Shown piece after piece: positions 18,055-45,551 of a stretch of DNA of 58,842 nucleotides (positions are counted from its first letter, which is position 1; each line of letters opens with the position of its first letter). The DNA comes from an uncultured virus (IMG/VR IMGVR_UViG_3300044701_002726) (lineage: Duplodnaviria; Heunggongvirae; Uroviricota; Caudoviricetes), in IMG/VR virus record IMGVR_UViG_3300044701_002726; one strand, 5' to 3'. A program made the position numbers and the translations under genes. The notes below the pieces were generated by a model. That model searched no databases, was not told the origin of the DNA, and saw only the letters and a program-made list of their open reading frames with translations.

Positions 18055-18396
18055 AAAAAATAAGTGCCGACTGATTGGGTGATAAGGTACAGTCGGCGAA
18101 ACCTCAGCTCAGCATGCTCTAGGCAGCTAAAGCGAAACGCTCATCGTTTGCGTTTATTTTATTTACTTTTTACGACTCTCTGTGTCGGATCGTCCATCTT
18201 TCTACTCTTTGCCCTGTCGAAACCAGGTCAGGCCCATTAGGAAGCATACTAAATCTGCACTTTTTCAGTCGGGGCTATCTGCTATTATGCAGCCTACCGG
18301 CAGTCCTTGACCGATCTTCATAGTATGCTTTCTGGTGGACCTGGAGGGAATCGAACCCTCGTCCAGAACACCTTTCAATTAACTTCATACGATCAT
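18055..18396 (-). ncRNA. ssrA: Circularly permuted (two-piece) tmRNA; tag peptide ANDERFALAA*
   Basis: T-arm GAGGG-TTCGATT-CCCTC + CAGGTCC-A-CCA (ends 18333) lies upstream of GGGCCTG..TTCGAC (starts 18235), with a G3.U alanine pair; tag ORF 18119-18151. Confidence 0.92.
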
Positions 18397-31885: not shown

Positions 31886-33607
31886 TTATTTTTCCTTATA
31901 TTGGTCCTTCGTTAGATCATTGTACAGTCTGTCATTTGATTCGTTTAATAATCTTTGAGCCCTTCTATTGTCTCCTATAAATTGATTCTTGTATATATCT
32001 TCTGACTTATAGAACTGTCCATCTTTTAATGCTTGATTTGTATATGCAGTTAAATCTATTGGAGATTTAGCAAGAGTATCAATACTTGCACCTGTTGCCA
32101 GATCATTATCTTTCACATCCTTCTTTACTGTTTTCTCTTCTTCTTTGACTTCTTTGATCTCTACTTTAACTTGATTGCCAAGATCAGTAGTGTTAGTGGT
32201 ATCAAATGAAGTTACCTTTACTACCTCTTCAGTCTTTTCTTCTTTCTCAGCAAATGTCGTTTGTGAAGATTGTGTAGACTGTTTTGTTTCTTCTTGTTCT
32301 TTACTTTCGTCAAAGAATTTTTCTTCTTGCTTGTTATCACTCATTGCAATTTCAATAGATACTAGACTTGAGACTGCAATATTTTGTAACGCCTCTTCTG
32401 TGCCTGTAAAATTTGGATTGGCATCTTCAGAAAGGGATTGTTCGATAGATTGATTTACTACCTTCAGTGCTTCAGTATTATCTATAGCATCTCTAACAAC
32501 TGACATCAATAGATTTCGATCTACTTCTTTCTTTTCTTTCTCTTCCTCTTTGACTGACTCTTTTAATACTTCTGGCTTGTCATCTGGTACTGATATCTCA
32601 CCTGTTGCAGATAGTTCTACGCCACCAACATCGACATTTGTTTCAGACTTTGTTGAATCTTCTACAACAATTACAGGTGCAGATTGAACTACTTCAGCAG
32701 TAGGTTCATCTTTCTTTTGTTCCTCAAGTTTTTTTGCCATTGCGGCACCATAGCCAGGACAATCTGGATCGTATGTCGCATCAGCAGTACATGCTTGCTG
32801 GAACGCTAATGCCTCTGCGTATCCTGGACAGAACAGACTTGCAAGTGGTCCTAATACTGAACACACCGTTGACTCTAGTGCTTGCTGAAATCCTGGACAT
32901 CCAATATCAAATAATGGATCAGCAGAGCATGCTAGATTGTATTGTTGGAGTTCCCATGCCGCTTGATATCCTGGACAATCAACAGAATATAAAGGATTTG
33001 ATGCACAAGGATCAGAAGTATAGTTTACAGACAAAGAAACATTCTTAATCTCTGGTCCGTAATACCCACCCCAGAATCCACCATCTCTTCCTTCAAACCT
33101 CATTGTAATACTTTGAGGGTCAAGATATGAAGTGGAAAACATTCTTGAACCAGAAACAAAATTCCATTGATCATTTACTCCTGGTCCTACCGTACCATTC
33201 AAATTTAAGTGTGTTGCTTCTGTTGCAAAACCAGTAGATGTAGTTAACCATATTGATGCAGACAAATAATCAGTCTGAAGACTATTGTTGGGCATATGCC
33301 TATAATCAAAAGAATAATTATATCCAGATACTTGAATACCAGTACCACCCAATGCTTGTTGCAGTCCTATAGTTTGAACTAATGTGTCCAGTCCATATGA
33401 AAACATTATTGTGTTTGTAGAAGTGTCATACAATGCACCAGATCCACTTATAGACGCACAACAACCTCCGGGATCTACACCATAAGTAGCACCTGACCAA
33501 TTGTTATTATTGATCAGATTCGCAGAGGTCTGTTCTTGTGCGTTAGAGTAGGAAAAAGAGCAGAGTAAGAATACCCAGCCCAGTACCAAGTGTTTTAGCA
33601 GTGTCAT
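31886..33607 (-). CDS. Secreted protein with C-x2-(D/N)PLY-x3-CPGY repeats and acidic C-terminus
   Basis: Signal peptide; four Cys-pair repeats. Confidence 0.7.
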   Translation of the reverse strand: MTLLKHLVLGWVFLLCSFSYSNAQEQTSANLINNNNWSGATYGVDPGGCCASISGSGALYDTSTNTIMFSYGLDTLVQTIGLQQALGGTGIQVSGYNYSFDYRHMPNNSLQTDYLSASIWLTTSTGFATEATHLNLNGTVGPGVNDQWNFVSGSRMFSTSYLDPQSITMRFEGRDGGFWGGYYGPEIKNVSLSVNYTSDPCASNPLYSVDCPGYQAAWELQQYNLACSADPLFDIGCPGFQQALESTVCSVLGPLASLFCPGYAEALAFQQACTADATYDPDCPGYGAAMAKKLEEQKKDEPTAEVVQSAPVIVVEDSTKSETNVDVGGVELSATGEISVPDDKPEVLKESVKEEEKEKKEVDRNLLMSVVRDAIDNTEALKVVNQSIEQSLSEDANPNFTGTEEALQNIAVSSLVSIEIAMSDNKQEEKFFDESKEQEETKQSTQSSQTTFAEKEEKTEEVVKVTSFDTTNTTDLGNQVKVEIKEVKEEEKTVKKDVKDNDLATGASIDTLAKSPIDLTAYTNQALKDGQFYKSEDIYKNQFIGDNRRAQRLLNESNDRLYNDLTKDQYKEK

Positions 33608-41814: not shown

Positions 41815-41889
41815 TGGTGCATCGTGAAGGTTACGCTCCCTCTACCCTCTGCTTGTAAGGCAGACGCTCTACTATTGAGCTAACGATGC
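41815..41889 (-). tRNA. tRNA-Val(TAC), non-canonical T-loop
   Basis: Loop CT-TAC-AA; T-loop AGCGTAA; CCA. Confidence 0.88.
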
Positions 41890-42372: not shown

Positions 42373-42840
42373 TTAAGCAGCTAAACTTTTGTAACGATCA
42401 GCAGCATATGATGCCGCAAACGCTCTTGGTTTTACCATAGGAATTACATTACAAGTTCCACGAATATAACCAATTGCTTCATTGATCACGCAATTTGAAC
42501 CATGCATTTCACTTGGGTTGATATCAAGGTGGACTTCTACATCACGACCTTCTAGAACATCAGCCAACTTTAAATACATTTCAGATACCTTGTATACTTC
42601 ATTCATCAAACGGTATCTCGGACGATCTTCTTTTTGGTCATAGTCTCTTTCACGAACAACTTCACCAAAAAGTTTGCAACCGTGTTTTCCATCTTTGTGA
42701 ACAACTATAGCAATTATATAGTCAGCATGCCACACTTCATTCACTCTTAATCTTTCAGAATCACATCCAAGATAAATTTTTGTTTCTGGCGATTGTCTTG
42801 AGATGTAATCTTTCACTTCTTGTAAATTTATCTTGAACAT
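42373..42840 (-). CDS. RNase H-like (YkuK/DUF458-type) protein
   Basis: IYLGCDS, IVVH..GKHG, RLMNEV, EVHLDIN, KP.AFAASYAAD. Confidence 0.75.
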   Translation of the reverse strand: MFKINLQEVKDYISRQSPETKIYLGCDSERLRVNEVWHADYIIAIVVHKDGKHGCKLFGEVVRERDYDQKEDRPRYRLMNEVYKVSEMYLKLADVLEGRDVEVHLDINPSEMHGSNCVINEAIGYIRGTCNVIPMVKPRAFAASYAADRYKSLAA

Positions 42841-43269: not shown

Positions 43270-43346
43270 TGGTGGCGATGGAAGGATTCGAGCCTTCGAT
43301 CTTTTCCGTATGAAGGAACTGCATTTGACCGCTATGCTACATCGCC
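43270..43346 (-). tRNA. tRNA-Met(CAT), elongator-type
   Basis: Loop TT-CAT-AC; paired G1-C72; CCA. Confidence 0.88.
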
Positions 43347-43516
43347 ATTAGTGAGAGTACTATCATATCTGTTTAAGGACACTTTTCAGTCCTCTCTGCA
43401 TCCCTTAGACTCACCACAAGTCTCGCACCAACGGCGTGGATTCATGCAAAGATGAGTACTACCACGATAGTCTGGCTGCTGGTTAGGCACTTCGTTCTAC
43501 AGACTCTCACTAATGG
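43345..43516 (-). ncRNA. Structured inter-tRNA element closed by a 14-bp terminal stem
   Basis: CCATTAGTGAGAGT...ACTCTCACTAATGG with several internal hairpins. Confidence 0.55.
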
Positions 43517-43588
43517 CTCCAGAGGTAGGGATCGAACCTACGACACACGGATTAACAGTCCGCTGATCTACCGCTGATCTACTCTGGA
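43514..43588 (-). tRNA. tRNA-Asn(GTT)
   Basis: GCGGA-CTGTTAA-TCCGT; CCA. Confidence 0.93.
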
Positions 43589-44018: not shown

Positions 44019-44024
44019 AAAATT

Positions 44025-44132
44025 TGGTGCTATGTCCAACCTTGCAAGTAGGACTCTAATCGCAGTTTGAGAGGCATCGTTCCTAGGATCGAGAGGCACA
44101 TCCTGCCACAGCGTAAAGCGACGCTGTGCATC
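44025..44132 (-). ncRNA. Non-tRNA structured RNA ending in ACCA
   Basis: Hairpins ACAGCGT/ACGCTGT, AGGAT/ATCCT, GTCC/GGAC; TGCCTCTC twice. Confidence 0.5.
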
Positions 44133-44133
44133 T

Positions 44134-44209
44134 TGGTGGAGAGTATCGGGTTCGAACCGATGACCTCCTGCTTGCAAAGCAGGCGTTCTCCCAACTGAAC
44201 TAACTCCCC
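44134..44209 (-). tRNA. tRNA-Ala(TGC)
   Basis: CCTGC-TTTGCAA-GCAGG; G3.U70; CCA. Confidence 0.94.
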
Positions 44210-44270
44210 ATATTGAAACACACTATGCCACGCTCTGAACCTGGACTCTTAGTAATGTGTTCGAATATGG
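44208..44270. repeat. Hairpin cassette copy 1
   Basis: CCATATTGAAACACACT...AATGTGTTCGAATATGG. Confidence 0.75.
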
Positions 44271-44432
44271 TGTTGCTTGTTCCCGTCCGTCGGGCCAATG
44301 TGTCGGGCTTTATTGCTCTCTACCTATTCAGCCATTCCCATCGTCGAGAGTCAATGGGAAACATCTTGACACACCATCTAACTTAGATTACTTTGCCATT
44401 AGGCGTTTCATCTACTAGCAGTCAGCAAACCA
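44268..44432 (-). ncRNA. Non-tRNA structured RNA (~160 nt) ending in ACCA
   Basis: Stems TTGCT/AGCAA, TGTGTC/GACACA, TTCCCAT/ATGGGAA, ATCTA/TAGAT. Confidence 0.5.
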
Positions 44433-44537
44433 TATTGAAGCACACTGACAGTATCGAAACTGCCCACACCGCCGAAAGACGATGCTAGGTCCACTCCCAA
44501 GGCCGGCGCCGTCTAGCCTTAGTGTGCTTCAATATGG
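44430..44537. repeat. Hairpin cassette copy 2 (perfect 17-bp terminal inverted repeat, internal T-arm-like hairpin)
   Basis: CCATATTGAAGCACACT...AGTGTGCTTCAATATGG. Confidence 0.85.
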
Positions 44538-44646
44538 TGACCGGTGCTGTTTTTCCGGCTTTGCTGGTTTTGTCCTTTTGGGCTTGTCCAGCGGAACACC
44601 ACGGCTTTTCACCGTTGATCCTGCGTATCAGCCTACGCCTTCACCA
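44535..44646 (-). ncRNA. Non-tRNA structured RNA (~110 nt) ending in ACCA
   Basis: TGGTGA/TCACCA closure; GCGTA/TACGC, ACGG/CCGT, GCTGG/CCAGC, CCGG/CCGG hairpins. Confidence 0.5.
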
Positions 44647-44722
44647 TATTGAAGCACACTTAGACTACTACCCTACTCGATCATAGACTTTCAGAGCTTC
44701 ACCCAAATGTGCTTCAATATGG
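44644..44722. repeat. Hairpin cassette copy 3
   Basis: CCATATTGAAGCACACTT...AAATGTGCTTCAATATGG. Confidence 0.85.
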
Positions 44723-44807
44723 TGGGTGGTGATGGTAACGCTCCACGAGGCAACTTCCGATCTTATTATGCCGACGGTTTTACAGACCGCTGACCGGGGC
44801 ACCACCC
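44720..44807 (-). tRNA. Atypical tRNA-Tyr(GTA): no D-arm, 8/4 fold, long variable arm
   Basis: GCGGT-CTGTAAA-ACCGT anticodon arm; GGGTGGTG/CACCACCC-A-CCA acceptor. Confidence 0.7.
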
Positions 44808-44815
44808 ATATTCTT

Positions 44816-44938
44816 CCATTTGAAATGCTGACTGCACTATTTGCTATGTCGCACCAGACTTATCATGATTTACTGGTATATTGTCATAGTTACTCAGGTT
44901 TGATCATACCCGTGGCTTACAATCAGCATATCAAATGG
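44816..44938. repeat. Hairpin cassette copy 4 (diverged)
   Basis: CCATTTGAAATGCTGACTG...CAATCAGCATATCAAATGG. Confidence 0.65.
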
Positions 44939-45011
44939 TACACCTAGGGGGAATCGAACCCGCCGTTTATGCCTTGAAAGGGCATCGTCCTAACCGTTAG
45001 ACGATAGGTGC
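44936..45011 (-). tRNA. tRNA-Glu(TTC)
   Basis: ATGCC-CTTTCAA-GGCAT; CCA. Confidence 0.92.
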
Positions 45012-45026
45012 AAGTAACAACACAAA

Positions 45027-45039
45027 TTTTTAAAGAACA
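45027..45039 (-). promoter_or_regulatory. rrn-type boxA antitermination element
   Basis: TGTTCTTTAAAAA between promoter and first tRNA. Confidence 0.75.
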
Positions 45040-45060
45040 ATTCATCACATCATGTAGATC

Positions 45061-45113
45061 ATTATACACTAAACCTACGAATTGTCAACTACTACTGTTG
45101 TAAAAAAACAACA
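45061..45113 (-). promoter_or_regulatory. Internal tRNA-array promoter TTGACA-N16-TATAAT with TGTTG-N8-CAACA box (45096-45113)
   Basis: Motifs read directly. Confidence 0.82.
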
Positions 45114-45116
45114 AAG

Positions 45117-45194
45117 TGGAAGTACGGGTCGGATTCGAACCGACGAATCGTGAGTTTTGCAGGCTCCGCCATTAGACCGCTCTGGTACCGTACT
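45117..45194 (-). tRNA. tRNA-Cys(GCA)
   Basis: Loop CT-GCA-AA; U73; CCA. Confidence 0.9.
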
Positions 45195-45199
45195 ATAAC

Positions 45200-45289
45200 T
45201 GGTGGAGAATCAGGGAGTCGAACCCTGTGACCCTATTTCTAGAATCTACGGATTAGCAATCCGCTGCATTACCATCCTGCCCATTCTCC
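45200..45289 (-). tRNA. tRNA-Ser(GCT)
   Basis: Loop TT-GCT-AA; long variable arm; CCA. Confidence 0.92.
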
Positions 45290-45293
45290 GAAT

Positions 45294-45385
45294 TGGTGGA
45301 AGCGGTGAGATTCGAACTCACGGGCCACTTTCATGACCGACAGTTTTCAAGACTGTTGCAATAAACCGGACTCTGCCACACTTCC
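45294..45385 (-). tRNA. tRNA-Ser(TGA)
   Basis: Loop CT-TGA-AA; long variable arm; CCA. Confidence 0.92.
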
Positions 45386-45459
45386 ATATGGAAACACATT
45401 GCCAAGTAGAGCCATGGTATCTTGTGCGGGAGCAACCCCTACAATGTGCTTTCATATGG
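45384..45459. repeat. Hairpin cassette copy 5
   Basis: CCATATGGAAACACATTG...CAATGTGCTTTCATATGG. Confidence 0.75.
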
Positions 45460-45551
45460 TCCTTGGACTAGGATTCGAACCTAGATCATCCCCTCATCTA
45501 GAGGCATCGCCGAGGTATAAGCTCGGAGTTTTACCATTAAACTATCCAAGG
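45457..45551 (-). tRNA. Atypical tRNA with TAT anticodon (Ile-UAU) and 25-nt variable arm
   Basis: CCGAG-CTTATAC-CTCGG; variable hairpin CCTC-TAGAT-GAGG; canonical T-arm; CCA. Confidence 0.8.

Follow-up and report, generated by a model that had tools for sequence, protein, structure and literature searches.

A family of stem-framed hairpin cassettes with variable interiors in the tRNA array of an uncultured T4-like phage

INTRODUCTION

RNase III processing stems are known from stable-RNA operons and from the early transcripts of phage T7. In the transfer RNA (tRNA)-microRNA units of murine gammaherpesvirus 68, and in engineered tRNA-guide-RNA arrays, a hairpin abuts the 3ʹ end of a tRNA and is freed by the tRNA-end enzymes of the cell. 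For two-piece transfer-messenger RNA (tmRNA), removal of the intervening sequence is established according to the tmRNA passages of a later article (Keiler 2000, as cited in PMC9004378). Phages of the T4 type offer two further points of reference. One is the pair RNA C and RNA D of T4, presented in the pertinent passages of PMC9697503 as non-tRNA small RNAs that lie beside the phage tRNAs and whose function is still unknown; the other is the PeSL, given in the relevant part of Arbiol et al. 2010 (PMC2839356) as a promoter plus a terminator situated between protein genes of T4-type phages. Here we describe short hairpins, called cassettes below, that share features with several of these systems. 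Each is framed by a stem that is largely common to the family and encloses an interior (its cargo) that is not. They were found in the tRNA array of IMG/VR record IMGVR_UViG_3300044701_002726, a stretch of 58,842 nucleotides (nt) from an uncultured virus of the class Caudoviricetes; this whole stretch is referred to as the window.

RESULTS AND DISCUSSION

A common stem frames unrelated interiors

The window carries 25 tRNAs and a permuted tmRNA (called by ARAGORN, with which Rfam agrees), every one of them on the minus strand, and the cassettes are therefore read on the minus strand as well. Four hairpins located among these genes (cassettes A, B, C and E; Table 1) have a common stem of 18 base pairs (bp), CCAUAUUGAAGCACAUUN / NAGUGUGYUUCAAUAUGG. 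Its 16-mer arm occurs in eight copies in the window when up to three mismatches are allowed, against 0.5 expected, and none of 100 shuffled sequences reaches eight. Seven of the eight matches are paired arms of the four cassettes, and the remaining one, at position 33248, is unpaired and lies within an open reading frame (ORF). One further arm, at 44255-44270 (CCATATTCGAACACAT), exceeds the mismatch limit and is hence uncounted.

A preliminary description of this DNA had listed five elements with shared arms. That statement stands for A, B, C and E, but not for the fifth, cassette D, the arms of which (CCAUUUGAUAUGCUGAUUG / CAGUCAGCAUUUCAAAUGG, about 20 pairs) are related to the shared stem yet diverged. 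The outer stem is closed in all five folds (z −2.9 to −6.7). As had been described, the interiors are unrelated: they measure 27-89 nt and show no mutual match in clustering, and the TTCGAT hairpin reported for one of them is the last hairpin of interior B, with its UUCGAU loop. Each of the five also begins at an upstream CCA, as first claimed, which belongs to tRNA-Ile(UAU), to tRNA-Glu or to one of three RNAs with CACCA ends that are not tRNAs, named X1, X2 and X3. Cassette E, for example, lies between tRNA-Ile(UAU), at whose CCA it starts, and tRNA-Ser(UGA), and its last GG forms bases 1-2 of tRNA-Ser; the last GG of cassette A likewise supplies the first bases of tRNA-Ala.

A sixth hairpin, cassette F, was overlooked in the preliminary description and bridges tRNA-Asn and tRNA-Met. 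A sub-threshold Rfam match to Ocean-VII RNA falls in its interior (43371-43413, minus strand; 17.1 bits where the gathering threshold is 53.5, E 0.087).

Table 1. Positions in the window of the cassettes, the RNAs between them and the associated putative signals
Feature	Position	Strand	Description
Cassette A	44208..44270	(-)	Canonical stem, one arm diverged, z −3.8
Cassette B	44430..44537	(-)	Canonical stem, z −6.1; cargo of four hairpins
Cassette C	44644..44722	(-)	Canonical stem, z −6.7; begins at the CCA of X1
Cassette D	44816..44938	(-)	Diverged, compensated stem, 20 pairs, z −4.5; starts from the CCA of tRNA-Glu
Cassette E	45384..45459	(-)	Shared stem, 3 mismatches per arm, 18 pairs, z −2.9
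Cassette F	43344..43517	(-)	Same build, different 15-bp stem GCCAUUAGUGAGAGU, 100% complementary
X1	44720..44807	(-)	Non-canonical tRNA-Tyr(GUA)-like RNA; no match from ARAGORN or Rfam
X2	44538..44643	(-)	RNA ending in CACCA; ends UGGUGA and UCACCA mutually pair
X3	44271..44429	(-)	RNA ending in CACCA; ends pair through UGG...CCA
Sigma-70-type promoter TTGACA-16-TATAAT (putative)	45061..45088	(-)	12/12 match to consensus; heads the tRNA-Glu operon with cassettes D, C, B and A
boxA-like leader (G)UUCUUUAAAAA	45027..45037	(-)	Between the promoter and tRNA-Glu
Second boxA-like leader CGCUCUUUAAAAA	45647..45659	(-)	Ahead of tRNA-Gln; 21-nt exact repeat
Spacer hairpin within the permuted (two-piece) tmRNA gene	18234..18335	(-)	ARAGORN, Rfam

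The cassettes recur in related phage tRNA arrays

A scan of IMG/VR with one exact 15-mer arm returned at least 122 loci. A cassette was called where a second arm was present within three mismatches, and the loci considered (designated by L numbers) were the scan matches together with L123, a locus of record G001, and the window array. Some loci overlap on one contig, and identical cassettes were counted once. Among the matches listed, 136 distinct cassettes in 89 loci were obtained in this way. All of the 27 multi-arm loci that were laid out are tRNA arrays, except that no tRNA was called in L106. When, as a control, the arm of cassette D was used instead, 68 loci matched, with paired arms only in the two contigs nearest to the window and single, chance-level matches elsewhere; the cargo family of D was nevertheless found in L069 between canonical arms. 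The arm of cassette F, a second control, matched at least 120 loci and, among the matches listed, is paired only in the two contigs nearest to the window, the others being single matches at chance level.

In 185,579 GTDB species genomes the paired-arm pattern occurs on three contigs, all from freshwater metagenome bins and all with tRNA arrays. Among cultured phages, a cassette query run up to E 10 gave no record with both arms, and blastn with the array region matched tRNA genes alone. Rfam 15 has no match up to E 10 for the window cassettes or the X RNAs and, likewise, none up to E 0.05 for cassettes or X RNAs in 11 related loci. A literature search that included the exact arm string, and whose coverage did not extend to subscription journals, found no description of such cassettes.

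Stem pairing on the tRNA strand and registration with the upstream CCA

Stem statistics were compiled for the 124 cassettes that reside in loci with all tRNAs on one strand, after 12 were dropped because their loci had no tRNA or mixed strands or because their length was 170 nt or more. The cassettes retained are 59-164 nt long, with no preferred size. Over positions 1-18, the tRNA strand yields 1960 Watson-Crick pairs, 213 G·U pairs and 59 mismatched cells, whereas the same stems read on the opposite strand have 23 G·U pairs and 249 mismatches. Several arm variants are compensated (UUAUAG/CUAUAA, UUCAAG/CUUGAA, UUUCAG/CUGAAA and GAAUCAC/GUGAUUC). Strand-specific G·U pairs and compensatory changes of this kind argue for selection on RNA pairing. 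Pairing also extends to two positions outside the search pattern, namely position 17 (118 of 124 copies) and position 18 (100 of 124; AU 33, CG 22, GC 16, UA 10, GU 10), and it drops off beyond position 18. Position 18 itself covaries freely, with five types of pair. At position 16, a U·G pair is present in 99 of the 124 copies.

Positions 1-3 of the stem are the CCA of the upstream tRNA itself in 46 of the 49 cassettes that have a tRNA within 30 nt upstream. Comparison of the sequences shows that the spacer folds into a standard 18-bp stem that starts from C74 of the upstream tRNA or CCA-ended RNA. Of the 124 cassettes, 85 have A and 28 have G as the base before CCA. The downstream fit is looser: 13 cassettes overlap G1-G2 of the next tRNA, with which the end of the stem often coincides, and 16 leave 5-9 nt. 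Two loci (L065 and L068) have cassettes that follow a boxA leader with no preceding tRNA; their arms are CAAUAUUG/CAAUAUUG, and the CCA:UGG pairs are replaced jointly on both sides. A run of U residues follows only 8 of the 124 cassettes, and the terminator-like sites on the minus strand of the window coincide with no cassette arm. The cassettes are accordingly not terminators.

Whole modules differ between near-identical phages

Two related loci, L022 and L047, are nearly identical to the window in this region, with X1 and cargo B 100% identical. Their order is X1-B-tRNA-Ala, and that of the window is X1-C-X2-B-X3-A-tRNA-Ala, each of the two extra blocks being flanked by directly oriented arms. 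Cargo A is identical in L020, L062 and L063, where its flanks differ, and one X RNA family precedes four different cargos. These comparisons show that near-identical phages differ by the gain or loss of entire modules, precisely at the arms.

Cassette interiors and the tmRNA spacer

The 138 interiors compared fall into 107 clusters. Their guanine-cytosine (GC) content is 0.50, against 0.27-0.45 for the window. The preliminary description had allowed that the interiors might not be conserved, in which case the stems would be folding insulators only; comparison among relatives instead revealed several interior families that are conserved with compensatory changes. In one of these families, the loop AGUUGAUCGC is constant while its stem switches from GUAG/CUAC to ACAG/CUGU. 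Another, GUCAAGGAC...GAAAAAGU, is represented by five variants with both-sided changes at 11 of 25 pairs. In addition, 12 of 124 cargos contain a T-loop-like motif when read on the sense strand, and the antisense strand has no instance; in shuffled sequences the number averages 1.5 and never exceeds 6. In 7 of these 12 cargos the motif is placed 3-6 nt ahead of the 3ʹ arm, as in a tRNA.

The GUCAAGGAC...GAAAAAGU family connects the array to the tmRNA gene. With canonical arms it follows tRNA-Ile, tRNA-Leu and tRNA-Tyr; in the window and in L334 it lies, with the stem AAAGCAUACUA/UAGUAUGCUU, within the tmRNA gene. The related stem reported earlier for the tmRNA spacer at 18234-18335 is borne out: a column-by-column alignment places it on positions 8-18 of the shared stem, with compensatory changes. 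The stem and cargo of the tmRNA spacer are homologous to the canonical cassettes of the tRNA arrays. A scan with the tmRNA-type cargo motif gave mostly chance or unrelated matches, and nine loci are true members. ARAGORN calls no tmRNA in L001-L126.

RNAs with CCA ends between the cassettes

In X1 the acceptor stem has 8 bp and a D stem is missing; the anticodon loop is CUGUAAA, the variable arm is long, and the T arm consists of a 4-bp stem and an invariant, odd loop (AGCGUUA). Relatives were found in L022, L023, L056, L069 and L085, and compensatory changes affect 8 of 21 pairs across five sequences. Tyrosine is the sole amino acid that lacks a tRNA in the set called by ARAGORN, and X1 would make the amino-acid set of the phage complete at 20. 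Two of the called tRNAs are also unusual. The gene for tRNA-Ile(UAU) (45457-45551, minus strand) measures 95 nt, a size seen in tRNAs whose variable arm is long, and tRNA-Ile(UAU) genes of the same length are present in L023, L100, L126 and phage DLP_6. The tRNA-Val(UAC) gene (41815-41889, minus strand) has an odd T arm (GGTTACGCTCC, plus strand) that resembles the T loop of X1.

For X2, no relative was found among the related loci compared, and a 92-nt RNA in L051 has the same 5ʹ and 3ʹ ends as X3. A fourth non-tRNA RNA that ends in CACCA lies at 44019-44133 (minus strand), between tRNA-Ala and tRNA-Lys, and is 91.5% identical to L018 over 106 nt. Many more families of CCA-ended RNAs are present in related loci. 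Among the non-tRNA RNAs upstream of cassettes, a helix of at least 6 bp ends right before the pre-CCA base in 59%, compared with 35% at shifted end points.

One RNA of about 75 nt recurs upstream of cassettes in L019, L025, L027, L033 and L073. It has constant loops GGUGGUAUGUAG and GAGGACCGGGAUUCC, a closing stem that covaries and a 3ʹ end made of a hairpin plus ACCA; no Rfam match was obtained for it in L019 and L025, the two loci searched. In L022 (2566-2785), a 7-bp minihelix with a CCA end and a small ORF lie between tRNA-Glu and cassette D, and D therefore starts there at the CCA of a bare minihelix.

Operon layout and neighbouring genes

The window is part of the genome of a T4-like myovirus, as indicated by Pfam matches to gp6, gp25, gp53 and a T4 baseplate protein, and further to gp32, gp59, T4 RNase H and a gp38-like adhesin. 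A link to freshwater is provided by sequencing runs labelled freshwater metagenome, which come from the same study as the best-matching runs. The array is absent from G001, the record nearest to the window. Read 5ʹ to 3ʹ, the order in the cassette-rich operon is promoter, boxA-like leader, tRNA-Glu, D, X1, C, X2, B, X3, A and tRNA-Ala. The promoter is assigned by its match to the consensus, and promoters in the window are located at the heads of arrays, none of them inside a cassette. The leaders resemble CGCUCUUUAACAA, which we take to be the boxA consensus of rrn operons. A set of 82 related loci contains 34 sense-strand and 3 antisense-strand copies of the motif [CT]TCTTTAA[AC]AA, mostly downstream of a TTGACA/TATAAT promoter plus a small hairpin.

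An ORF with a PF04308 domain (DUF458, RNase H-like) lies inside the tRNA array at 42373-42840 (minus strand) and has homologues in 11 related loci (58-76% identity). Stenotrophomonas phage DLP_6 likewise has one within its tRNA array, and homologues are present in 76 records of cultured phages. This ORF was considered as a partner of the cassettes and rejected: the DLP_6 array has PF04308 but no hairpins flush with CCA, so the gene is not specific to cassettes. Other occupants of cassette-bearing arrays, or of their surroundings, are GIY-YIG/NUMOD3 homing-endonuclease ORFs (L031 4774-5487 and five other loci) and, within related tRNA arrays, group I introns (Rfam RF00028; L023 2119-2314 at 71 bits and L020 4556-4749 at 53 bits).

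A possible route from spacer to small RNA

We lean towards reading the cassette as a module of phage stable-RNA operons, namely an RNA spacer that can be excised and by which small structured RNAs are also presented. These operons would be transcribed from strong sigma-70-type promoters, by way of rrn-like boxA leaders, into long untranslated precursors. Where a tRNA comes next, RNase P would cut the 3ʹ side of the cassette, and the upstream CCA end might be freed by an endonuclease, for which the candidates are RNase III acting in the stem and RNase E or RNase Z acting at its AU-rich base (CCAU/AUU). The product would be a released, stem-capped small RNA, and the stem would thereby double as cutting signal and protective scaffold. 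Many cargos might be functional structured RNAs. The identical arms additionally serve as short homologies for gaining, losing and swapping modules, as comparison of near-identical phages shows. Both excision and the nature of the cutting enzyme are what we infer; the tmRNA spacer supports excision by analogy, since it represents the same module and the maturation of two-piece tmRNA is known.

Several points weigh against this proposal. A stem of 18 bp is short for classical double cleavage by RNase III, and a hairpin that sits flush on the 3ʹ end of a tRNA should hinder exonuclease trimming rather than help it. How the family was collected (one exact 15-mer plus an arm with at most three mismatches) accounts for part of the conservation at positions 1-16. 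The proposal also does not account for the retention of the stem sequence beyond what pairing alone requires. No recurrent protein partner is encoded within 3 kilobases (kb) of the arrays, where the commonest ORF cluster is found in 11 of 84 loci. Finally, cargo folding barely exceeds that of shuffled sequences (mean z −0.4, with 3% below −2) and 84 of the 138 interiors are singletons in clustering, so many cargos could be filler.

The last two observations, together with the absence of a preferred size among cassettes, are what would be expected if the element were a spacer or insulator only, with a stem that prevents misfolding of the neighbouring tRNAs and marks a cut, and with interiors that are tolerated as filler and then degraded. 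We nevertheless regard this as unlikely. Compensatory changes maintain several of the cargo folds, one family is preserved in two contexts, an identical cargo can lie beside different neighbours, enrichment of the T-loop motif is confined to the sense strand, and cargo GC content exceeds that of the window. Less probable still, in our judgement, is that the cassettes are mobile DNA elements, similar to miniature inverted-repeat transposable elements (MITEs) or spread by homing endonucleases, that target the junction after a tRNA and form an RNA hairpin merely as a by-product. The preliminary description had offered a version of this view, in which a tiny element inserts at tRNA 3ʹ ends, and part of it survives: the cassettes have terminal inverted repeats, modules are present or absent exactly at the arms between near-identical phages, the same cassette is found in different tRNA contexts, and 6 of the 84 related loci encode GIY-YIG ORFs. 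However, the interiors do not share one sequence but form 107 clusters, unlike copies of a single element. The cassette sequences reveal no direct target duplication, their CCA and UGG ends being inverted; of the MITE features (inverted ends, target duplication and one interior), only the inverted ends are present. Pfam finds no transposase or integrase domain in the window, whose paired arms are confined to the tRNA array, with one lone arm-like site in an ORF elsewhere. Moreover, the strand-specific G·U pairs and compensatory changes point to selection on RNA pairing.

Constraint on the stem sequence beyond pairing, exemplified by the U·G at position 16, could instead reflect a decoy that docks a host or phage protein such as a sensor of double-stranded RNA or a nuclease, with cargos, some of which are tRNA-like, that soak up RNA-targeting defences. 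The T-loop motif and its tRNA-like placement in seven cargos would suit such a role, but the arrays have no recurrent protein partner nearby, and the nuclease-like PF04308 gene also occurs in a cassette-free tRNA array of a cultured phage; we therefore rate a decoy as quite improbable. We give the lowest rank of all to the proposal that the hairpin is mainly a recombination site acting in DNA or single-stranded DNA, in the manner of an integron attC or a T4-type PeSL, with the tRNA and X genes as the cassettes that it moves. Insertions and deletions bounded by directly oriented arms and the independent assortment of X RNAs and cargos would fit such a site, as would folding on one strand, which is also a property of attC-like sites, and PeSLs mediate shuffling of this kind in T4-type phages according to the passages on them in PMC2839356. 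Yet no integrase domain was found by Pfam in the 58.8 kb of the window, itself part of a genome, and tRNAs and small RNAs make up what lies between the hairpins. The cassettes also lack a promoter or terminator (a U run follows 8 of 124, as noted above), always follow the direction of tRNA transcription, start flush with CCA, and comprise the same module as the excised tmRNA spacer.

A more far-reaching possibility, which we advance only tentatively, is that cassettes serve freshwater phages as a shared 'RNA integron'. The clamp stem would make small structured RNAs portable, self-processing and nuclease-resistant, and the more than 100 cargo families would constitute a pool of effector RNAs (regulators, decoys and counter-defence agents) on which phages draw by arm-to-arm recombination. 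Phage tRNA arrays are now read as sets of tRNAs for codon supply or counter-defence. The arrays examined here hold a second, larger layer of dozens of small RNA families that are framed by stems or end in CCA, with modules exchanged between phages and with transcription predicted to resemble that of ribosomal RNA operons. Should the cargos prove functional, they would represent an extensive, untapped collection of phage RNAs, as well as a natural counterpart of the tRNA-flanked designs for RNA expression used in synthetic biology, and the spacer of two-piece tmRNA would be tied to a general module.

Comparison with known systems

The two-piece tmRNA spacer (Rfam RF04321) is like the cassettes in that it connects the CCA at one 3ʹ end with the 5ʹ end of the RNA that follows, and in that it needs to be excised. 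In the window, only 18234-18335 runs from the CCA of an acceptor piece to the 5ʹ end of a coding piece. Cassettes, by contrast, mostly reside between ordinary tRNAs or small RNAs, and because the five in the tRNA array lie between tRNAs or X RNAs, they are relatives rather than members of the tmRNA spacer class. The passages on tmRNA and on hairpins in PMC9004378 contain no mention of a standard stem or of a large variety of cargos.

Like RNase III stems, the cassettes place a long helix at the borders of mature RNAs within a predicted polycistronic, boxA-led and untranslated transcript, the evidence for the transcript and its antitermination leader consisting of sequence matches. Unlike those stems, which flank a mature RNA with a helix of about two turns or more, the cassette helix encloses the spacer, ends at 18 bp and has a near-fixed sequence across many phages. 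The tRNA-microRNA units and tRNA-guide-RNA arrays also differ, in that they are eukaryotic or synthetic and have neither a shared clamp sequence nor a phage context.

With RNA C and RNA D of T4, the cassettes have in common that they are small non-tRNA RNAs in the tRNA region of a phage. We know of no clamp stem shared by RNA C and RNA D. PeSLs resemble the cassettes as short stem-loop modules that are repeated in T4-type genomes and mark sites where units are gained, lost and swapped. A PeSL functions in DNA and as a signal for transcription. The cassettes differ from PeSLs in lying inside RNA operons, in lacking a U run and in pairing specifically as RNA of one strand, and no sigma-70-like promoter is joined to a terminator stem-loop in them. 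As for CRISPR arrays, the cassette arms are inverted rather than direct, so the array is not of this type; element lengths vary from 59 to 164 nt, and there is no cas domain among the Pfam matches. The original view of the locus as an array of repeats and variable cargo that is not CRISPR, made of RNA, is thus upheld by the inverted arms and by the strand-specific G·U pairs. Of the nearest known systems, namely the tmRNA intervening sequence, RNase III stems, RNA C and RNA D of T4 and PeSLs, none unites a single shared clamp stem with cargos this diverse.

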